A stretch of DNA of 64,000 nt from a bacterium (GTDB lineage: Bacteria; Patescibacteriota; Minisyncoccia; Phycocordibacterales; CAIZLB01): positions 36,915 through 100,914 of the forward strand of contig JBAXAB010000001.1 of NCBI GenBank assembly GCA_037142735.1, written 5' to 3'. Within the stretch, counting starts at the first letter, position 1. Every line of letters begins with the position of its first letter. The position numbers and the translations under genes were made by a program. Below, in pieces: positions 3,536 to 63,699 of the stretch. The notes under the pieces were generated by a model that worked only from the letters and a program-made list of their open reading frames with translations, did no database searches and was not told the origin of the DNA.

Positions 3536-3619
3536 ACTATGGAAAATAAGGGTTTTTTGCCAATTTTAATATAATACTAAAAAATACTTGACATATATTT
3601 AATATGTGCTAGGGTTTTA

Positions 3620-4215
3620 TCAGCGCGAAGGTTCTTTGAACAAAACATCTACGTATCTTGATGGCCGCGAGGTCAATCAAAGGTAAAGATGTCGAACCCT
3701 CTCCGCTCTGGTTACTCGTCCGACGTGTCGTAAACCAGTGTATGCGAAGAACAAACAGCATGTGAGTACCAAGTCAAAGGCACGCTGTTTCGCTAGGCAC
3801 AAAGATAAGTCCGGCGCACAAATGGATGCTTGTCCAAAGCTCCTACTCTATGGGTCCACAGGCGCCGTAAAGCGACATCGAATCGTCGGGAGGGGCAACG
3901 TGCTACCACCCGCTATCGAACTCGCAGCCGCCACCATCGCCGTCGCACAATGCGCGGCCGAGCATCAGAGATGGCCCAAGAAAATCTCAAGGACGAAAAC
4001 GAGCCGGGCAACCTTGAGAATGGACAGCGCTGCGGCGCAACAGGTTTCGATCAATCCCAGGTCGAAAGTGCAGGCAGTCTCGGCAGACACCGAAGCTGAA
4101 CCCGAAGTTCTTACCCGCACACCGAAGGGTACCCCGCTGTTGCGCGCCCCACGCGTGCACAGCGGGGGCCCGACGGCCTCCCACACACTGATCCCACCCC
4201 GGGGTCTTTTTTTGT
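3620..4215 (+). other. GC-rich island 1: ~600-nt segment ending in an intrinsic terminator. Candidate structured ncRNA or small-ORF cassette. Diverged paralog of the element at 18459-18860.
   Basis: Sharp GC rise versus neighbours. Extended hairpins, e.g. CCCCGCUGU..ACAGCGGGG. Conserved blocks shared with island 2 (TCGAACTC..CGCCACCA, ATGG..GACGAAAAC, GGCCCG..CCTCCCACAC). Only low-complexity overlapping ORFs. Confidence 0.4.
4193..4214 (+). terminator. Rho-independent terminator (CCCCGGGG hairpin plus a T7 run).
   Basis: acCCCGGGGtcttttttt lies immediately upstream of the leuS promoter region. Confidence 0.8.
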
Positions 4216-4267
4216 ACCTGAATTAGCGTTACTATCCATTTTTTGCTACTATTATTTTCATACTTTT

Positions 4268-18502: not shown

Positions 18503-18860
18503 AAGCGTGTGGAGGGGGAATTGTTTACGGGCCGCCTGCTACAGGTGACCTACGCTGACGATTTCTGCGGAACCTCCGGACGTATTTTCGTTTTTCTCGT
18601 CCATGGTCAGTGGGCTTGAAGGGACTCGCCCTTCAGGTTGGTTGGGCCGGGCGTGACCTTGGCTGGTGGGCGGAGAGTTCCGACTGGGGTGTCCCAGTTT
18701 TTCTGGAGCTGTTTCCTGTAGTGATCGTGGGATTGAGGCTTTGCAGGCGCCTCGGGTGTTGCTGTCATGGTTTCGTTGGTGGTTGGTTGCTTCGTGGCTA
18801 CGTGAACTTCTGGCGCCGACTATCGGCGTCAAAAAATCCATCGCAGGGTTCAAAAAATAA
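18459..18860 (-). other. GC-rich island 2: minus-strand paralog of island 1 with A/C-rich leader, two tiny coupled ORFs and a terminator. Candidate ncRNA or small-ORF cassette.
   Basis: Shares ordered blocks with island 1 (TCGGAACTCTCCGCCCACCA, ATGGACGAGAAAAACGAAAA, GGCCCG..CCTCCACAC). Leader ..aaccaaccaccaacgaaaccATG. Inverted repeat TCCATCGCA..TGCGATGGA at the 5' end. Confidence 0.4.
18607..18768 (-). CDS. Candidate small ORF (53 aa, MTATPEAPAKPQSHDHYRKQ...) after the A/C-rich leader of island 2.
   Basis: ATG right after the ACCACCAA leader. Its stop lies 2 nt before the ATG of a second 21-aa ORF (18539-18604). No homology recognised; may be non-coding. Confidence 0.25.
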   Translation of the reverse strand: MTATPEAPAKPQSHDHYRKQLQKNWDTPVGTLRPPAKVTPGPTNLKGESLQAH

Positions 18861-18996
18861 GTGACTTACTTTCTAAACTTTGCGATGGATACACCTTTGA
18901 TGAACTTATTCTGTGGAGCAGTATAATACCTTTTGTTAAAAAAGTCAATATTTTGAATCTTTCTGCCACGATTGCTTTATGTTAATATCAAACGCA

Positions 18997-20844: not shown

Positions 20845-20888
20845 ATTTCAAATTTTATTCATGAATTAGTCATGATATAATATTCGGT

Positions 20889-21968: not shown

Positions 21969-22009
21969 TCCACAACTTGATACTGCTTCAATTGTGATAT
22001 AATGCTGAC

Positions 22010-27859: not shown

Positions 27860-27998
27860 CTGATGAAATTCCTCCCTCTTTTTTTTGTTGTTGTACGTGA
27901 CTCGTGTCCACGAGTGTTAGCCCCATAAATAAAGTAACATGGTATGAAAAAAATTCCAAACTTTTGTTAAAAAATGAGAATACTATATACTTTACTCA

Positions 27999-28271
27999 AT
28001 GGATTATTTAACAAAAATTTTAAGACGCATCTCTATTAAAAGCGTCCTAGTTCACATCATCGCACTATCTGCGTCAATCGGAGTGATCTGGGGAATTAGT
28101 TATTTGATTCTGGTCACCTTTTCCATTCAGGACAGTGCCGTTGTGGTAGTTCCGGCTAGTGAAGTTATACCCAAAATCGCATCTAACACCGCTTCATCTA
28201 CTTTAAAAAATAGTAAAAAGGGGACAGGGCATGCAACATCAACTAGTAGTAGTACGAAAAGTAAGAAGTAG
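27999..28271 (+). CDS. Small membrane protein (90 aa), hypothetical.
   Basis: TM helix LVHIIALSASIGVIWGISYLILVTF and a Ser/Thr/Lys-rich tail. Confidence 0.45.
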   Translation: MDYLTKILRRISIKSVLVHIIALSASIGVIWGISYLILVTFSIQDSAVVVVPASEVIPKIASNTASSTLKNSKKGTGHATSTSSSTKSKK

Positions 28272-33158: not shown

Positions 33159-33221
33159 ACACGTATTAAGTAATTATCACGTCGCGCTTTAATGGACGGT
33201 GCGCGACGTGATTTCGTAAAA

Positions 33222-38817: not shown

Positions 38818-39405
38818 CTAGGCCTCGACCCCGATCAGTCCGCTCAACATGCTACGGACCAGGTTTGTCGAGGCCATCACAGGGATTCGGGCCAGTTCGA
38901 ATTGCAGGGCGAAGACAGGATCGTCGAGCACAACGCGCGCGGCGCTGAAAGGCAGATCCACTCGGCCGTTGTAGAGAACCAAGCCTTCAGCCTGAACCGA
39001 GCGCAACTTGAGAACCTCCGAGACTTCCGTTCCGGACAGATCCAGATGAGCCTTGATTTTGACCTGTTCGATGGACAACCTCTTCCATCTGTTCCTGTAC
39101 ATGTCGATGTACCTGACTTCGGCACAATCAGACATGTGAAATGCGGAACCTTCACAGCCGGAGACATGAAGGCCGCCCAGGAGATTGCACTTTTCGAAGC
39201 CGATCCTGCAGTCTGGCTCATTTTCGATGTGAAGCCATCCGTTGAAGGTGGTGTTCCGGAAACAGAGGGAATTGATAGGATTCTTCTTTCCGCCGTTGAT
39301 CGAGAAGTCATCAGTGACGATGAACGACTCGTGAATACCGAGCCCGTGTGGGCTGGTGAGTTTTGCCAGATACTCTGCTGGCTTTATGAGTGTAGGTGAT
39401 GACAT
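38818..39405 (-). CDS. Pentapeptide-repeat protein (195 aa) in GC-rich island 5.
   Basis: Tandem A(D/N)LxX-like pentads (CNLLG GLHVS GCEGS AFHMS DCAEV ..LDLSG TEVSE..). GGAGG SD 9 nt upstream of the ATG. Confidence 0.75.
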   Translation of the reverse strand: MSSPTLIKPAEYLAKLTSPHGLGIHESFIVTDDFSINGGKKNPINSLCFRNTTFNGWLHIENEPDCRIGFEKCNLLGGLHVSGCEGSAFHMSDCAEVRYIDMYRNRWKRLSIEQVKIKAHLDLSGTEVSEVLKLRSVQAEGLVLYNGRVDLPFSAARVVLDDPVFALQFELARIPVMASTNLVRSMLSGLIGVEA

Positions 39406-42262: not shown

Positions 42263-42376
42263 GATATTGGTGGTTGGTTTGTGGTTCAGTATGAAAGGCC
42301 TTTGGACACTTGCGTGTACTCTAGCCGTTCATTGCTAAACCCAAACTCCATCACAGATGTAAAGAACTTTGATAAA

Positions 42377-42405: not shown

Positions 42406-42438
42406 CGTCTCCACTTCCTGTGATATAATCTCCCTCAC

Positions 42439-44181: not shown

Positions 44182-44211
44182 TGTGTAAAATATGATATAA
44201 TTTTTACATAT

Positions 44212-44761: not shown

Positions 44762-44918
44762 ATACCTAGTAGATAGGGGTTCTTTACATTGGTTCAGATG
44801 GGCTTTCAAGGATGCAAAAAGGATGGGTCCAGACAAGACCTTTTCTCCTTGCATCTTTGGAAAGCTTACGCCGCCCAAGGGTCACACCACCACACCTAAC
44901 CACCACCGACCACCCACC

Positions 44919-45660: not shown

Positions 45661-46006
45661 GCCTATAGGCAGACTCTGAATGCACTACTTGGTTCTATCA
45701 ACAAAGCCATGCTAGTCTTATGCACAGACCAAGCTCCATTTGCTTTTCAAATGAATCAGGTCAAATTCACCGCAACCCAAATCCACAACTGCCACAAATG
45801 AAAAAAAAATAATCCTTGCAATTCAACCACAGCGATCTGATCTTAGGCACCGTCCACTGTTATTTTCTGTGCCGATACCTCAGTACCAATGCCATCGGCC
45901 GTTTCTTCAATTGCCCGTTGGAATGTTGAAGAGATTCTACAATGCCGGTGCCACTGTATGTAGGCGCTAAAGTTCACATTCACCCAAAACAAAAAACAAC
46001 CCAAAC

Positions 46007-46043
46007 CTACCGTCGCCGCAAGGCCGCGGTAGTTTGTTTTTTA
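46007..46043 (+). terminator. Intrinsic terminator on the plus strand with no annotated gene upstream.
   Basis: CUACCGUCGCCgcaaGGCCGCGGUAG followed by UUUGUUUUUUAUU. Suggests a non-coding transcript from ~45560-46045. Confidence 0.5.
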
Positions 46044-46119: not shown

Positions 46120-47511
46120 TTAAGGTTTGTTTTTTAGTGATTCGCCAGGTTCTAAACCCGACGCTTGATGTTCAATCCTTTGGTGCACCCGAACCAAGTG
46201 CCCTGGGATGATATTAAACATGAGTAGCTGTGCGAGCTGGACAATAAACGGATCTGAGCCAGTGATGAGTCTCTTGTGCAGACGAAGGCGCCCGTAGATG
46301 TGATCACCGTCGAGGAGCTCAACCAGCATGCTATCACCTTTCTTTGTAACCTTGATCTTTGCGATAACTGGCACTCCAATTTTCCGGAAGTACTTGGTCC
46401 ATTCGGCTTTGACCTTGACCCATTCATCTTGGTCTGCAGGTCCAAGTATGATGCCGAAGGACGCGAACACTGACAAAGGCTCAGTGACTTCCTCGGTTAT
46501 CCGACCAGGTAAATCCGCGACCACCAGCTTTGGACCAGGCAGTGATTGAAGCTCGAACATAGACCTCACAGATTCCTGCACAAGCTCTGGGGTCCACTCA
46601 CGCTTATTGGCTTTGGATATTCGCCTGTTTGGAACTGCATGGTTTCTGATAGAATCTGCCACCGGATCTGCGAGGTCAAGCATCTTCATCAATGCACGTA
46701 GTTTACGGATCCTTCTCCAGGGTCCAGGCCGATTACGTAGGCAGTCGAGCTGGCTAGAAAACTCGACGTCCAGTGCAGGCATAGTGGTGCTTTTACTTGT
46801 AGCCGGTGGTCCCCCAATCAAGATTGTTGGTCCTCCCATAAGCATCAAATAAACTACCAACGCCTCGTCCAAGATCATCTGCTTGTAGCCAGTGATATGC
46901 CTTAAGCGATCGGGATCTGTAATACCCTTTCGTCTTTCACTAATTGGGGTAGTAAGAGGCCGAGCATATGCTCCGAGTCTGTAGCGCAGTTGACTGAGCT
47001 CTTCGTACACGCACTTTACCTTAGCATCGAGCTTGTCCGCGATGACGGCTGGGTTGAGGCTCTCCGAATGAATTCGGTCGAACACCTTAGCACAATCAGC
47101 CATCGCTTTTTTGGGTTTACCATGGCGGGAAAGCTGGCCAGTGAAGGCCAACCACTTCCTCCACGCCGTTTTTTGTTTTCCTCCAAACGAAAAGAAATGT
47201 CTCATCCCTTTCAGTTGGAAACGATTTGCATGACAGAGGCCATCCACTGCCAATAATTCTTCGACCAGACCTTGCAAACTCTTTTCAGAGAGATTAAGGT
47301 CGACTATTGCGCCGCATCCACTGAAGAAATCTGCTGGTGACTTTTCAGTCCTCGACAGAGAATTCCAGCGAATGTGATGCTTGCCAAGGAATGACCCTCG
47401 GGCTGTTTTAGCCTTGCTTAAGAGCCAATAGACGAAAGCGTCTAGGGGGCGAAAAGGAAGTGGTATCAACACAATCCTCAGGGCACCCTTCGGTAATTGT
47501 GTGATGTTCAC
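46120..47511 (-). CDS. Hypothetical protein (463 aa), GC-elevated, with a degenerate P-loop-like segment.
   Basis: ILIGGPPATSKSTT resembles a variant Walker A. No SD before the GTG start, so the start is uncertain. Promoter TTGACG-N18-TAAATT on the minus strand near 47600-47640. Confidence 0.55.
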   Translation of the reverse strand: MNITQLPKGALRIVLIPLPFRPLDAFVYWLLSKAKTARGSFLGKHHIRWNSLSRTEKSPADFFSGCGAIVDLNLSEKSLQGLVEELLAVDGLCHANRFQLKGMRHFFSFGGKQKTAWRKWLAFTGQLSRHGKPKKAMADCAKVFDRIHSESLNPAVIADKLDAKVKCVYEELSQLRYRLGAYARPLTTPISERRKGITDPDRLRHITGYKQMILDEALVVYLMLMGGPTILIGGPPATSKSTTMPALDVEFSSQLDCLRNRPGPWRRIRKLRALMKMLDLADPVADSIRNHAVPNRRISKANKREWTPELVQESVRSMFELQSLPGPKLVVADLPGRITEEVTEPLSVFASFGIILGPADQDEWVKVKAEWTKYFRKIGVPVIAKIKVTKKGDSMLVELLDGDHIYGRLRLHKRLITGSDPFIVQLAQLLMFNIIPGHLVRVHQRIEHQASGLEPGESLKNKP

Positions 47512-53349: not shown

Positions 53350-53847
53350 TTATTTATGAACTGAAATAAATGGAAATTCAATAATCTGATGTCTACTCTC
53401 TAAACCAGAGGGATTCTCGGCTGAAATAGATAATTTCATTTTTGTATCACTAGGAGCGTTCAAACCCATATCATCTACAACAAAGGAAAAGTTTGTAGTA
53501 GTACTCGCCCAATCAGTAACATGGATTATGTCTTTATTCACAGCTTCCCAAGTTCCAGTATTGTTTAAAAATAAGAGCTGCCAAGTTCCCGCCTGACCTT
53601 CAAACATTGTCCACGAACAGCCTTTATTTGAATTATCAACTACCCCTGAAATAGTGACAGGCAGACTGACTTGGTCATTTGGTTTAAGAGAAGTAATCTT
53701 GAATGCTTCACATTTTGGCACCTCTACAGTAGTAACTTTTACTGGAGCTTCTTTAAACTTTTGTACATATATATAGACCACCAATAAAACAATGACTATG
53801 ATTAAAAATGGAACAATAAAACCACCTTGATGTTTTTTCATATGCAC
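53350..53847 (-). CDS. Hypothetical protein with N-terminal TM (165 aa), in the position usually held by murD.
   Basis: TM IVPFLIIVIVLLVVYIYV. No motif. Confidence 0.65.
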   Translation of the reverse strand: MHMKKHQGGFIVPFLIIVIVLLVVYIYVQKFKEAPVKVTTVEVPKCEAFKITSLKPNDQVSLPVTISGVVDNSNKGCSWTMFEGQAGTWQLLFLNNTGTWEAVNKDIIHVTDWASTTTNFSFVVDDMGLNAPSDTKMKLSISAENPSGLESRHQIIEFPFISVHK

Positions 53848-53865
53848 AAAATTATATCACAAACC

Positions 53866-57746: not shown

Positions 57747-57870
57747 GAAGGTTAGTTTAGCAAAAATATGCTTAATTTAAAAGGTTTTGAATTAACACGT
57801 ATATTGACAAATATATATAGATATGGTATCATTAGAAAGTAGACAGATCTTTAAAAGCAGGTCATTGGTA

Positions 57871-57917
57871 GGTTACAGACAACTTCTTGTTTCTTAAGTA
57901 AGTAGTTGTCTGTAACC
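57871..57917 (+). promoter_or_regulatory. Perfect 14-bp inverted repeat (GGTTACAGACAACT-N19-AGTTGTCTGTAACC) just upstream of the island 7 leader. Operator-like and overlaps a weak promoter.
   Basis: Seen directly. Followed by taaGGTTGCGGaaaacaacacaccaccaataccc ATG. Confidence 0.5.
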
Positions 57918-57951
57918 TAAGGTTGCGGAAAACAACACACCACCAATACCC

Positions 57952-58428
57952 ATGAAAACACCCCTCAACTTCATCGAAACCCACGCTTACACGCTCGCCA
58001 TCACGATCGGAGGAAGCGTCATCGCCTGCATCCTCATCGGATGCGTGATGCTCCGGCAAGCCTATATCAAGGCGCAAAGTGCAAAGCGCGCCCGCAAGGA
58101 CGAGCTGGACACAGAAACCGCCGTCTGCGCGGAGCTGCGATACCCAATGCTTCGCGACTCTTACCGCAAAGCGGTCAGCACCAGGCGACGGTTCGACACC
58201 AAATCCCCGATCGCCGACGAGATGTACAACCATCTCAGCGACATCCGGTTCGCGTTCTTCGAAGGAGTCGCTCGCCTCATCGGGCGAGGGGCACCACTCT
58301 ACGTAGACAAATTCCCTCGCGGAGTGTGTCACGTGATCTGGAACACGCTCTTCGGTTGGACCATCCTCCTCACCGGCTGGCTTCACCTCGTTGAAGTCGC
58401 CCGGGCGAAGGAGGTCCAAGCGAGCTGA
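57952..58428 (+). CDS. Membrane-anchored protein (158 aa) in GC-rich island 7.
   Basis: ATG after the A/C-rich leader aaaacaacacaccaccaataccc. TM LAITIGGSVIACILIGCVML, Arg-rich cytoplasmic region, second hydrophobic segment near the C-terminus. Confidence 0.6.
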   Translation: MKTPLNFIETHAYTLAITIGGSVIACILIGCVMLRQAYIKAQSAKRARKDELDTETAVCAELRYPMLRDSYRKAVSTRRRFDTKSPIADEMYNHLSDIRFAFFEGVARLIGRGAPLYVDKFPRGVCHVIWNTLFGWTILLTGWLHLVEVARAKEVQAS

Positions 58429-58454
58429 GAGCAGATCGTCCTGGAAAACCCAAA

Positions 58455-58502
58455 GCCGTCAGGCGCAAGTACCCACTCTTGCCCTGGCGGTTTTCCTTTT
58501 GT
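58455..58502 (+). terminator. Intrinsic terminator of the island 7 gene.
   Basis: Long imperfect hairpin CCGUCAGGCGCAAG..CUUGCCCUGGCGG followed by UUUUCCUUUUGU. Confidence 0.5.
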
Positions 58503-58530
58503 ATACATAATTTATTTTAAGTGACAGCAT

Positions 58531-58572
58531 TTTAAAAACGAACACCCGGCCCTTCGTGAGAAATGCCGGGTG
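58531..58572 (-). terminator. Intrinsic terminator of the pilin gene.
   Basis: Minus strand CACCCGGC..GCCGGGUG followed by UUCGUUUUUAAAAUG. Confidence 0.6.
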
Positions 58573-58617
58573 GTGTGAGTTTGATGGACGCTTGTGAAGC
58601 TGCCGGTCGCCGCCGAG

Positions 58618-59031
58618 TTAGTTGTAGGGCGACCAGAAGCTTGCGGCTGCGGGAGTGTCCTTCGTGACGTCGGCGAACGCTTCGACGGTTGCAGACGAAA
58701 CCTTTGCATGTCGGGTTCCGACGGGCAAGGTGATCGCATGACCGAGGATGTCCACGCCGCCGCTCGAGTAGAGACGCGTGCCGGGTTTGAGGTAGGCCTG
58801 GACGTCCATCCACTTGGGGATGACGCCAGGTTCCTTCGCCGCGAGGGCGTATTGGTCGGCAGCGATGTCAACGAGCCGCAGCTCTTCGATCGTCATGTTC
58901 GCCTGCGAACGCTTGCGGCCACGCAGCCAGTTCGGGACGGCGATGGCGGCGAGCAGGGCGATGATCGCGACGACGATCATGATTTCAACGAGCGTAAAGC
59001 CCGTGCGTTTGGTGTTCAGTTTACGGAGCAT
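58618..59031 (-). CDS. Type IV pilin / pseudopilin (138 aa) in GC-rich island 8.
   Basis: Class III signal and N-terminal helix MLRKLNTKRTGFTLVEIMIVVAIIALLAAIAVPNW (G|FTLVE). ATG directly after caacgcaacatcaaaccaacaccaaacaacacacc. The upstream extension to 59163 is unlikely to be coding. Confidence 0.8.
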   Translation of the reverse strand: MLRKLNTKRTGFTLVEIMIVVAIIALLAAIAVPNWLRGRKRSQANMTIEELRLVDIAADQYALAAKEPGVIPKWMDVQAYLKPGTRLYSSGGVDILGHAITLPVGTRHAKVSSATVEAFADVTKDTPAAASFWSPYN

Positions 59032-59094
59032 GGTGTGTTGTTTGGTGTTGGTTTGATGTTGCGTTGCAGAACGCAGCCAATGCCGTGAGGCGCT

Positions 59095-59142
59095 GGTTGC
59101 GGAATAAAGACAATATAAAAATACAGGCTTTATTCCGCAACC
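59095..59142 (-). promoter_or_regulatory. Perfect 15-bp inverted repeat (GGTTGCGGAATAAAG-N18-CTTTATTCCGCAACC) embedding a TTGCGG-N17-TATATT promoter-like sequence upstream of the pilin leader.
   Basis: Seen directly. Shares the GGTTGCGG word with the sequence after the island 7 palindrome. Confidence 0.5.
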
Positions 59143-59272
59143 ATTCACATATGTGTCCATCAATATTTAAGGAACAATTTATTAAAAATTATCACAGATG
59201 TGGGTAAAGTCAAGTGTGTTGTAACCAGTACACAGGGTAAAAAATAAAGGATCAAGAAAACAATAACAAAAA

Positions 59273-59494
59273 CTATAACCCCCCTACCGATTTAATCTGA
59301 TCAAAACTACTAAGAAAATTTGGAATGGCGAAGAGTAAACCTATTAATGGCAACACAACTGCAAGTACAGTCACAACAAAAGCCCACCATATATATTTTC
59401 GAGTTTTTTCTACAGATACGTAGATCTTCTCAATTTTTTCTTCGAGAGTGGCAAGACGGGATTCGATGGTAGAGTTAGGCTGTGTAGAATTCAT
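59273..59494 (-). CDS. Small membrane protein (73 aa), hypothetical.
   Basis: C-terminal TM WWAFVVTVLAVVLPLIGLLFAI. AT-rich, native-like composition. Confidence 0.45.
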   Translation of the reverse strand: MNSTQPNSTIESRLATLEEKIEKIYVSVEKTRKYIWWAFVVTVLAVVLPLIGLLFAIPNFLSSFDQIKSVGGL

Positions 59495-59525
59495 GTGATT
59501 ATTTTAACATATTTTTTTGGGAAAT

Positions 59526-61154
59526 CTAAGAATTTACCATATCAAGTTCTATAAAGAAACTAGCCCCCTTACCAACCCCTTCAGATTCAGCCCATACCCT
59601 ACCATTATGAGCTTCAACCATTTTTTTAGCTACATAGAGGCCCAGACCTGTACCCATAATGTTAGTTTTTGATGCACCAGGTGCCCTAGTAAATTTTTCG
59701 AACAATCTTGGTAACACATCCGGATTGATTCCAACACCGGTATCAGAAATCGTAATCAATATTTTGTTATTCGGGCTCTTGTTCAACCACACATGTATAG
59801 ACCCCTTCGGTGTGTATTTAATTGAATTGTCTATTATGTTGCCTATGACCTGTTTAATTTTTCCTTGATCAGCATTCACTGTAAAGTTACAGTTGGGCTC
59901 ATAATTGAAATCAATTGATAAATTTGCTCTTTCCAAATTCGGTCTTAATTCAGTAATAACAGTTGCTACCAATTCTTTCATATCAAATTGGCTGAAGTCA
60001 TACTGCATTCTTCCTTGTTCAATTCTAGAAACATCTAAGTAATCACCCACTACTATCACCAAATCTTGAGTCGACTTAAATATCTTATCTACAGCGTCAC
60101 GTACACTGTCTTGTATAGCTCCAAAATCATTATCTAGAAGCATAGACGCGTAGCCTTTTACAGCAGTTAACGGACCCCTTAATTGGTGACTAGCCAAAGA
60201 AACGAATTCTGATTTTTGCTGATCAAGTTCTTTGAGGTGTATATTGGCTTGTTCCAAGTCGTTTGCTAACGATTCGATTTTTTCTCTATTCTTAATTTCT
60301 TTTTGAACGTTTTTTATAAGGAAATATCCTATTAAGAGAGTAAACGCAAAAAGTATTATATTACCTAGTCGTTCATTAAACGATTCACTGGCAAATATTT
60401 TTACAAATACAAATATCCATAACAGAAATGTAAGTATTTCAGTTGCAATAACTCTCACGCTGAACAGGTGATACTTCATAATTGCATAAGAAATAGAAAC
60501 GATCATGACGACCACACCCACTTGCCCCATCCAGTTTAATTCAAAGTAGCCTATATAAGGCAGAAACATATTTGTAGTTAAAGCAATCGACGTCGAAAAC
60601 AACGTGCCTATAAAAATCCACATTATCTGTCTATGTACAACATCTTGAGATTGTTTCCATTTTTTAAAAAGAATTAAGTAGCTAGATCCAAAACAAATAA
60701 TTTGATAGAGGACAAAAAACGTGTGGCCAACTAAATTAAATTTAATGATATTTTCAGACTTAGACATTAAATTAACTCCTTCTATCAGATAGCCTGGAAT
60801 GCTTGTAACAACCAAAATTGCAATAAAAAATAATGGCAATAAAAACTTTTCTGTGTAGGTCAACTTGTAAGACCTGTCTGGAAACGTGCAACATAAATAC
60901 AAAAATATAAACGGTATTACATCAGCAGAAAGATAGAGAAGTTTTGAGAAAAACAACGCAGAAATATTATCAATTGCACCTCTATAGAAAAAAATACTTA
61001 TTCCCCAACCGGCCACTGAAAGAGTTAACAATAAGAAGAAGAGATTACTTACCTCCCTTCTGTTTCGAGAGTAAATGATGAGACCGTAAATTAAGTTCGC
61101 AAGAGCGATTAATATAATCAGTACATTTATTGAATCTAATTTAAAGAATATCAT
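59526..61154 (-). CDS. Sensor histidine kinase with multi-TM sensor domain.
   Basis: ~7 TM N-terminus, HisKA (SLASHQLRGPL), HATPase_c (DTGVGINPDVLPRLFEKF..GTGLGLYVAKKMVEAHNGRVWAES). Confidence 0.9.
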   Translation of the reverse strand: MIFFKLDSINVLIILIALANLIYGLIIYSRNRREVSNLFFLLLTLSVAGWGISIFFYRGAIDNISALFFSKLLYLSADVIPFIFLYLCCTFPDRSYKLTYTEKFLLPLFFIAILVVTSIPGYLIEGVNLMSKSENIIKFNLVGHTFFVLYQIICFGSSYLILFKKWKQSQDVVHRQIMWIFIGTLFSTSIALTTNMFLPYIGYFELNWMGQVGVVVMIVSISYAIMKYHLFSVRVIATEILTFLLWIFVFVKIFASESFNERLGNIILFAFTLLIGYFLIKNVQKEIKNREKIESLANDLEQANIHLKELDQQKSEFVSLASHQLRGPLTAVKGYASMLLDNDFGAIQDSVRDAVDKIFKSTQDLVIVVGDYLDVSRIEQGRMQYDFSQFDMKELVATVITELRPNLERANLSIDFNYEPNCNFTVNADQGKIKQVIGNIIDNSIKYTPKGSIHVWLNKSPNNKILITISDTGVGINPDVLPRLFEKFTRAPGASKTNIMGTGLGLYVAKKMVEAHNGRVWAESEGVGKGASFFIELDMVNS

Positions 61155-63584: not shown

Positions 63585-63699
63585 TAGAAAAATTATAGCA
63601 TGACAACCTTACTTTTTTATACCTGGCTGTGTACAAAAAATCTATATTTCACAAAAAAAATATTGAATAAAATTCACGACGTATTTTATAAAAGCATTT

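Follow-up and report, generated by a model that had tools for sequence, protein, structure and literature searches.

What do two long, nearly perfect palindromes do in front of two small GC-rich genes of a low-GC bacterium, and where did these genes come from? The question is raised by the space between aspS and a histidine-kinase gene in a 64,000-nucleotide stretch of DNA (the window; GenBank assembly GCA_037142735.1, contig JBAXAB010000001.1, positions 36,915 to 100,914), whose host, judged by its sequence, is a Paceibacteria metagenome-assembled genome (MAG) of the Candidate Phyla Radiation (CPR). Two convergent one-gene units occupy this intergenic space, island 7 on the plus strand and island 8 on the minus strand; the former encodes a 158-aa orphan protein and the latter a type IV pilin-like protein, and they are fronted by the palindromes P1 and P2, respectively. 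A preliminary description had taken the palindromes to suggest a common DNA-binding regulator or a recombination site. We lean, with somewhat better than even confidence, toward a different reading, in which the islands are two independent foreign cassettes and the palindromes are stem-loops in long mRNA leaders.

Inverted repeats and motifs were surveyed in 82.8 kb of this one contig (the window and an extension beyond it), and Pfam-annotated gene tables span about 81 of the 83 kb read. By an island we mean a small GC-enriched unit between housekeeping genes, and all promoters named below are sequence predictions.

Composition and layout of islands 7 and 8

Each of the two units carries a long near-perfect inverted repeat, a leader made up of A and C that reaches to the ATG, and a terminator of its own. 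The GC content is 57.2% at 57895-59117 against 39.8% for the window, and GC at third codon positions (GC3) is 0.78 in the pilin gene and 0.75 in the 158-aa open reading frame (ORF), compared with 0.30 in aspS. Codon-position GC of both ORFs has the pattern of real genes from a GC-rich genome, and GC-rich islands are rare in 34 loci of relatives. The islands are thus compositionally foreign, as had been proposed, and the earlier impression by eye that the pilin gene is far more GC-rich than its housekeeping neighbors is now backed by GC3. The placement of the islands "downstream of aspS" is true in plus-strand coordinates only; in gene terms they lie 5' of aspS and are divergent from it.

The long perfect inverted repeats in front of both islands were confirmed in their coordinates and arms. 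P1 (57869-57919, plus strand) has a core of GGTTACAGACAACT (57871-57884) and AGTTGTCTGTAACC (57904-57917), which form a perfect 14-nt repeat around 19 nt, and its arms extend to 20 nt (57869-57888 and 57900-57919, 95% complementary) around an 11-nt loop. P2 (59094-59143, minus strand) consists of GGTTGCGGAATAAAG (59095-59109) and CTTTATTCCGCAACC (59128-59142) around an 18-nt loop; on the minus strand the perfect arms are 16 nt long (TGGTTGCGGAATAAAG and CTTTATTCCGCAACCA), and they extend to 23-nt arms that are 87% complementary. Inverted repeats scoring at least 12 number just 10 in the 82.8 kb. Five of them are terminators and two lie elsewhere, and the remaining three are long-loop repeats 5' of GC-rich ORFs, two of which are P1 and P2. 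By our own estimate, the chance expectation for perfect repeats of at least 14 bp with loops of 3-30 nt is about 0.009. Both palindromes sit at junctions of AT-rich and GC-rich DNA, and neither is an intrinsic terminator, as they have a GC content of 33-36%, loops of 11-18 nt and no T-run on either side.

The leaders and terminators are, like the hairpins, non-random. The A/C-only leader of island 7 (57928-57951, plus strand) abuts the ATG of the 158-aa ORF, the pilin gene has an A/C-rich leader at 59032-59066 (minus strand), and both lack a Shine-Dalgarno (SD) motif. That such leaders are real features of the window is indicated by the number of A/C-only runs, nine versus 1.1 in shuffled sequences, six of which end directly at the start codon of a GC-rich ORF; the loci of relatives (445 kb) contain 22 A/C runs, not one of which adjoins an ATG. 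The leaders of islands 7 and 8 also share GGTTGCGGAA and AAACAACACACC(A), and the order of these words with respect to the ATG is the same in both. In line with the preliminary description, which gave each island its own terminator, the two terminators fold into a stem with a U-run behind it. That of island 7 (58452-58503, plus strand) has a stem-loop with a folding energy of -28 kcal/mol (z -4.1) and then UUUUCCUUUU, and that of the pilin unit lies at 58530-58572 on the minus strand.

Since the composition breaks sharply against the flanks, and metagenome assemblies can be chimeric, the GC-rich stretches might be an assembly chimera or contamination and not belong to this genome. We regard this as extremely unlikely. 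On a contig of 128 kb, native low-GC genes border every island (0.3-1.6 kb) on its two sides, and the NCBI (127,938 bp) and ENA (128,110 bp; ERZ27300101, k141_330149) records agree in this structure. A separate Logan assembly of run SRR7053531 contains identical proteins, including those of another island (i41k), without polymorphism, and no other sequence is more than 61-68% identical to the pilin, which excludes contamination at the level of reads.

Three sources were consulted for an empty insertion site. The closest genome (93% AspS identity) is uninformative, its contig (L003) ending within aspS. In more distant relatives, about 5.6 kb of other genes lie between the histidine-kinase gene and aspS, and the gene order is too rearranged to define an empty site. 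A metagenome scan with the adjacent histidine kinase returned only relatives of at most 37% identity and no close relative.

Evidence for stem-loops in the predicted leaders

The predicted 5' untranslated regions (UTRs) of the two islands fold with -35.5 kcal/mol (z -4.46) for island 7, where P1 is read as the 5'-UTR stem-loop, and with -44.8 kcal/mol (z -3.66) for island 8, where P2 is read as a stem-loop in the 5' region of the pilin gene. Long hairpins recur at eight islands, always on the 5' side, and in 8 of 8 the sense fold beats the antisense fold, by 1.4-11 kcal/mol; the values are -26.8 versus -25.1 kcal/mol for P1 and -29.6 versus -24.7 kcal/mol for P2. The hairpins are therefore strand-asymmetric, and the more stable sense fold places the G.U pairs on the transcribed strand. 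The sequences of these hairpins are unrelated to one another, apart from those of islands A and B, which lie beyond the window end (67588-67636 and 67106-67153; 1500-1640 and 1990-2060 of locus L002). The A and B hairpins are homologous, with the consensus CGG[TC/CT]GTATCTTTTAG...GAAAGAT[GCGAC/ACAGC], and they keep 14 of 14 outer pairs through two compensatory and two wobble changes. Because of the sense-strand advantage in all eight hairpins and the compensatory changes between A and B, the palindromes point to a function at the RNA level. Rfam gave no match at gathering score in the window, and sub-threshold chance hits (E 0.56-0.69) overlap the palindromes.

The leader of island 7 further contains GGTTGCGGAAAACAAC (57921-57936, plus strand), which repeats the P1 5' arm downstream in degenerate form and can pair with the P1 3' arm. 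When the 5' arm is left out, the 3' arm folds with this copy (-14.1 kcal/mol, z -2.6). The layout of 5' arm, 3' arm and degenerate 5'-arm copy (1-2-1') is found in islands 7 and A and, in a weaker form, in island 8; in island A, a second copy of the 10 nt that begin the 5' arm (CGGTCGTATC) is found some 20 nt ahead of the ATG.

These data also bear on the idea that the palindromes are functionless, being by-products of illegitimate integration or of a template-switch "quasi-palindrome correction" that extended a donor-type 5'-UTR hairpin. The short UTR hairpins of related pilin genes (CCGCAGCG...CGCTGCGG) resemble CCGCAACC/GGTTGCGG, the 1-2-1' layout of islands 7, 8 and A would fit such an origin, and the perfect arms suggest recent formation. 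We nevertheless consider a by-product origin unlikely, as the hairpins stand at eight islands and always 5', the A/B pair shows compensatory change, and the constant sense-strand advantage suggests selection on RNA pairing.

The common-regulator interpretation started from a half-site, GGTT(A/G)C, and a word shared by the two palindromes. Both are present, and the inference drawn from them is not supported. GGTTRC opens the outer arms of P1 and P2, and together with GGTTGCGG(AA) it is all that they have in common, just 6-10 nt. GGTTGCGG occurs in four copies against 0.75 expected, a number reached in 0 of 100 shuffles; in island 7 it is explained as part of the degenerate 5'-arm copy, which can replace the 5' arm in pairing with the 3' arm of P1. 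We also considered GGTTGCGG as a DNA uptake sequence and rejected this, four copies in 64 kb being far too few. P1 does lie downstream of a strong predicted promoter, in a possible roadblock position, as might be expected if the palindromes were operators through which one DNA-binding protein co-controls both islands. However, arms of 14-20 bp that are 11-19 bp apart are unlike typical operators, and the hairpins at the other islands are unrelated in sequence. Moreover, the gene tables, which span about 81 of the 83 kb, list no TetR or Xre family, the only helix-turn-helix (HTH)-bearing genes in them are sigma factors and a PIF1 helicase, and no HTH regulator adjoins the region. An operator function is thus very unlikely.

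The recombination-site interpretation can be widened to small mobile or recombinogenic DNA elements, such as miniature inverted-repeat transposable elements (MITEs), Correia-like elements or the hairpin sites of HUH or tyrosine recombinases, which would mark cassette insertion and perhaps supply promoters. Several observations fit this. The palindromes stand exactly at the AT-rich/GC-rich junctions, their arms are perfect over 14-16 nt, and P2 embeds a promoter-like sequence. The A and B hairpins are related, and the island 5' regions share 28 words of at least 10 nt (among them AACCAACCACC, AAACAACACAC and CAAAGTTCTTTA), whereas shuffled sequences give 6.3 and sets of upstream regions from native genes 12.3 +/- 3.5. 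What may be a decayed cassette is found at 45769-45812. In addition, the Correia elements of Neisseria are inverted repeats between promoter and gene that can create promoters and form RNase III-sensitive mRNA hairpins in 5' UTRs (PMC2649163), and a similar 5'-UTR position is predicted for P1 and P2.

Other observations argue against a mobile element. Correia elements are multi-copy and have conserved terminal inverted repeats and a TA duplication, whereas P1 and P2 differ in sequence, neither has a further copy in the 82.8 kb, and only the A and B hairpins resemble each other. Flanking direct repeats or target-site duplications at islands 7 and 8 were not significant against shuffles (p 0.07 to 0.5), and no integrase, recombinase or transposase Pfam family is found in the gene tables. 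Integron cassettes are comparable in being small, mostly with one foreign ORF, and in having an imperfect palindrome each. Their attC sites, however, lie 3' of a promoterless ORF, have the form RYYYAAC...GTTRRRY and occur in same-orientation arrays next to intI. The geometry here is the opposite, GGTT...AACC (GGTTAC...GTAACC, and GGTTGCGG...CCGCAACC) 5' of the ORFs, with P1 placed after a strong predicted promoter; the units lie scattered, and for most of them a separate promoter is predicted. The G.U pairs on the sense strand likewise speak against a DNA-level site. We judge a mobile or recombinogenic element to be improbable, and with 6-10 nt shared, no recombinase, TetR or Xre family in the gene tables and no significant target duplication, the original proposal of a common regulator or recombination site is not supported.

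The pilin unit and its relatives

Island 8 encodes a prepilin-type protein of 137 aa (58618-59031, minus strand). It had been called a canonical type IV pilin, and the class III signal peptide is indeed there: with the leader MLRKLNTKRTG/FTLVEIM, the protein scores 32.6 bits against Pfam N_methyl (cutoff 21.2) and 29.5 bits against TIGR02532 (cutoff 16.3). No equivalog-level NCBIfam model reaches its cutoff. The AlphaFold2 model (mean predicted local distance difference test score, 79.9) has a long N-terminal helix at residues 14-64 and a C-terminal part of mostly short helices and coil, and PDB pilins and GspG align to the protein over the N-terminal part alone. A Foldseek search of the model against PDB gave no match at E <= 0.001, the best pilin hit having an E of 5.9. 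The gene tables contain no prepilin peptidase or assembly ATPase, and no further prepilin motif was found in the 83 kb.

A search with the pilin found 7992 relatives. Among the 120 best, most have a length of 132-135 aa, and the identity is 58-65% (BLASTP), the protein itself being the only 100% match, and the sole taxonomic name among these best 120 is Chthoniobacteraceae (Verrucomicrobiota). Viral matches were weak (40-50% identity) and mostly partial. In an alignment, the window pilin is 61-68% identical to 27 relatives that are themselves about 80% identical to one another; it differs from them at 12 family-invariant positions and contains a 5-aa insertion. This outlier status indicates an unsampled donor or fast divergence after transfer.

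We then read three loci of relatives (L001 5950-8320, L062 2000-3800 and L063 4200-5420), all of which are GC-rich; the GC median of L001 and L041 is 65%. The nearest relatives are members of a large family and not low-GC CPR pilins. In these loci, 133-aa pilin paralogs stand in tandem, two to four per locus, with TPR and DUF2079 genes flanking them. Every paralog comes with a sigma-54-type promoter (TGGCAY-N6-TGCTT), an A/C-rich leader without SD motif and a terminator, and most have a short 5'-UTR stem-loop just after the promoter. The window pilin resembles this family in its first 44 residues, which are near-identical, in the G/FTLVEIM motif, in the C-terminal FWSPY, in its A/C-rich leader and in a homologous terminator. 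It differs from the family in being a single copy and in having a long palindrome and AT-rich DNA in place of the promoter region.

The terminator hairpin CACCCGGCC...GGCCGGGTGTTTG is present in 6 of 7 aligned units of relatives, and the same hairpin is found at 58543-58572 in the window; CACCCGGC...GGCCGGGTGTT(T/C)G is kept in 7 of 8 aligned sequences including the window, the exception being L063_p2. The shared hairpin implies that the pilin coding sequence and its terminator were transferred together. Because the composition of the unit deviates and its nearest relatives belong to a GC-rich outside lineage, we conclude that the pilin unit is almost certainly of foreign origin. The donor was probably a high-GC, Verrucomicrobia-type bacterium, as suggested by the sequence relatives.

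Upstream of the coding sequence, the resemblance to the relatives is one of architecture only, as local alignment of the island 7 and 8 5' UTRs with those of the related pilin genes gave scores of at most 21, which are not significant. A small hairpin, TGCGTT-ctgc-AACGCA (59060-59075, minus strand), stands where the relatives' pilin UTRs carry their short stem-loop. By our reading, the sigma-54-type promoter is not intact in the window, where the spacer of CGGCAT-N4-TGCGTT falls short by 2 nt. The promoter-like TTGCGG-N17-TATATT that had been noted within P2 (59112-59140, minus strand) is there, and as a promoter it is weak, with 8 of 12 consensus matches read by eye and no hit in the promoter scan. 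A second weak candidate, TTGACT-N16-TAATTT (59186-59213, minus strand), was also read by eye and lies below the scan threshold. As the p73 gene and P2 have no terminator between them, transcription might also continue into island 8 from the p73/histidine-kinase genes (59273-61154, minus strand). Upstream of P2, GGTTACAACACAC at 59213-59225 (minus strand) resembles GGTTGCGGAAAACAACACAC of island 7 minus a small deletion, and it is possibly what is left of an older leader at the island 8 locus.

The 158-aa orphan of island 7

Island 7 is preceded by a sigma-70-type promoter, TTGACA-N17-TATCAT with a TG extension (57804-57832, plus strand), which is predicted from 11 of 12 consensus positions. 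Its ORF of 158 aa (57952-58428, plus strand) is called by NCBI (WCG97_00500), whereas ENA calls an ORF on the antisense strand; codon-position GC (0.58, 0.45 and 0.75 for positions 1, 2 and 3) favors the plus-strand frame. Two hydrophobic segments seen by eye make the product probably a membrane protein. Searches with it returned the protein itself only, and no Pfam, NCBIfam, PADLOC, viral or plasmid match. From the composition of the island and the leader words that it shares with island 8, we infer that island 7 is foreign as well.

A wider set of GC-enriched units

About 16 small GC-enriched units of 0.3-1.6 kb were catalogued between housekeeping genes in the 83 kb. Their cargos are unrelated to one another and are, by eye, mostly small and often hydrophobic proteins. 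Sigma-70 sites with 11 of 12 matches number six in the 82.8 kb, that of island 7 included, and four of the six front GC-rich islands, with a perfect TTGACA and a spacer of 17-18 nt.

Three further units, i18k, i44k and i27k, have long imperfect hairpins (at 18836-18890, minus strand, 44800-44872, plus strand, and 27958-28020, minus strand, respectively) between a promoter-like site and the ORF, and in each the sense fold is stabler than the antisense fold. CAAAGTTCTTTA or GTTCTTTACAT is found 9-20 nt after the -10 box of i41k (42358-42369, minus strand), i44k (44779-44789, plus strand) and island A (about 1560-1580 of L002), and it may be a shared transcript-start element.

Several loci depart from the common layout. 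The island at 3590-4230 (plus strand) has a GC content of 54-61%, a terminator near 4205-4222 and, near 3590, a promoter-like site with TTGACA, and no convincing ORF with ATG and A/C leader and no Rfam match were found in it; a non-coding RNA and a decayed cassette are both conceivable. At 45769-45812 (plus strand), CCGCAACC is followed by an A/C-rich leader and then by ATG AAA AAA AAA TAA, which looks like a decayed cassette that lost its ORF. At 45975-46040, another A/C run stands ahead of a bidirectional terminator-like hairpin near 46000-46040.

A GC-enriched gene of 463 aa (450 aa per ENA) at 46120-47511 (minus strand) belongs to a small, uncharacterized P-loop nucleoside triphosphatase family with 94 representative clusters. 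The protein has no Pfam match of its own, members of its family weakly match nSTAND3 and AAA_16, and there is a weak PADLOC match to Csx3-AAA. Its Walker A motif is degenerate, GGPPATSKST as against GGPPGSGKST in the family, and no relatives were found among viral contigs and plasmids. Two GC-enriched genes of 195 and 196 aa (38818-39405, minus strand, and 70791-71381, plus strand; the latter at 2204-2794 of L065) have no family match and only marginal similarity to each other (E 0.05). Unlike the other islands, they have an SD-like GGAG(G) before the ATG.

Native genes of the host

AspS of the host is 93% identical to that of an unclassified MAG, "bacterium GFS_7744," and its next relatives, at 59-66% identity, are mostly from Paceibacteria, Nomurabacteria and Patescibacteria MAGs. 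Almost all native genes lack SD motifs, an SD-like motif being present in 2 of 73 native low-GC genes. Of the 46 first genes, which are preceded by an intergenic region, 26 have a -10 box (in many cases TGnTATAAT) whose end lies 4-13 nt before the start codon; examples are at 20874-20888, 21995-22009, 42424-42438, 44197-44211, 53842-53856 and 63585-63599. This pattern in the sequence suggests that the native mRNAs of this Paceibacterium are mostly leaderless. The low SD use in the window agrees with the finding that an anti-SD motif was detected in just 48% of Parcubacteria (PMC9297842). The A/C motif was considered as an alternative SD sequence and ruled out, as it is absent from native genes. 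Between dnaB and recR, at 33176-33212, there is also a GC-rich inverted repeat of 12 bp with a 13-nt loop and no U-tract.

Discussion

We favor a model in which DNA of co-resident high-GC bacteria, possibly including the host of this bacterium, would be taken up and inserted between genes, natural transformation being a plausible route of acquisition for CPR bacteria. The cassettes that persist would be those expressed from sigma-70 promoters in the AT-rich flank, and such a promoter is predicted to be strong for island 7 and uncertain for island 8. The leader would run from the sigma-70-type promoter in AT-rich DNA through a long stem-loop into a G/U-poor, A/C-only stretch up to the ATG. The stem-loop may stabilize the mRNA, serve RNase III-type processing or gate access to the start region, and the A/C stretch would keep the AUG unpaired for SD-independent initiation.

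A number of points weigh against this model. On the RNA side, the covariation of the A and B hairpins comes from two sequences, and its shuffle control is weak, 119 of 500 shuffles reaching the observed value; P1 and P2 have no homologs, so covariation cannot be read on them directly, and the difference between the sense and antisense folds of P1 is small (1.7 kcal/mol). Transcription starts and promoter use are predictions, the promoter matches of island 8 are weak (8 of 12), and the hairpins are predicted to begin 20-30 nt after the transcription start and not at +1, as classic 5' stabilizers do. As to origin, island 7 has no homolog, and the case for its being foreign is made by composition and shared leader words; the donor phylum of the pilin is named by one homolog, and the best match of 68% (alignment) or 65% (BLASTP) means that the donor is unsampled or the gene strongly diverged.

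A bolder version of the model can be proposed, though we think it unlikely. A reusable 5' adaptor of strong promoter, long stem-loop and A/C landing pad would have been duplicated or rebuilt before about 16 unrelated genes captured from high-GC bacteria, possibly from the host, and would enable their expression despite the unusual translation system of the recipient. The host-type pilin and the small membrane proteins would then serve attachment or mimicry, and the host lineage would be Chthoniobacterales-like Verrucomicrobiota.

Known leader elements include ompA-type 5' hairpins, the RNase III sites of phage early mRNAs and CAA-rich, S1-dependent enhancers. The islands resemble such 5'-UTR stem-loops and SD-independent leaders in having a leader stem-loop and then a G-poor single-stranded stretch before the AUG. 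They differ from the classic 5' hairpins in the predicted distance from the transcription start, and they are known here from sequence alone. To our knowledge, long-leader hairpins on foreign GC-rich genes in a largely leaderless host have not been described so far.

Horizontal transfer in Patescibacteria has been found to be mostly within the phylum, with larger islands or prophages in addition (PMC12455944). The present case is similar in that foreign DNA of deviating composition, possibly from donors of other phyla, is found in a streamlined CPR genome. It differs in that about 16 single-gene GC-rich cassettes are scattered among housekeeping genes within 83 kb, most of them with a promoter-like site of their own; a hairpin on the 5' side, a terminator or an A/C leader is present in many. 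We would describe the case as multiple cross-phylum acquisitions of single genes that each stand behind a long stem-loop and an A/C leader, the recipient being largely leaderless and making little use of SD pairing.

The hosts of almost all Paceibacteria are unknown, and a recently captured pilin unit that resembles one outside lineage at the DNA level offers a concrete pointer to a donor or a host. The cassettes further illustrate how a bacterium with low SD use and mostly leaderless mRNAs could express genes of foreign origin. If the shared 5' features prove to be a reusable module, they would represent a new route to the domestication of foreign genes and could provide a ready-made expression signal for CPR genetics; if they are merely convergent, the islands would still be a well-documented example of gene transfer across phyla accompanied by rewired regulation.

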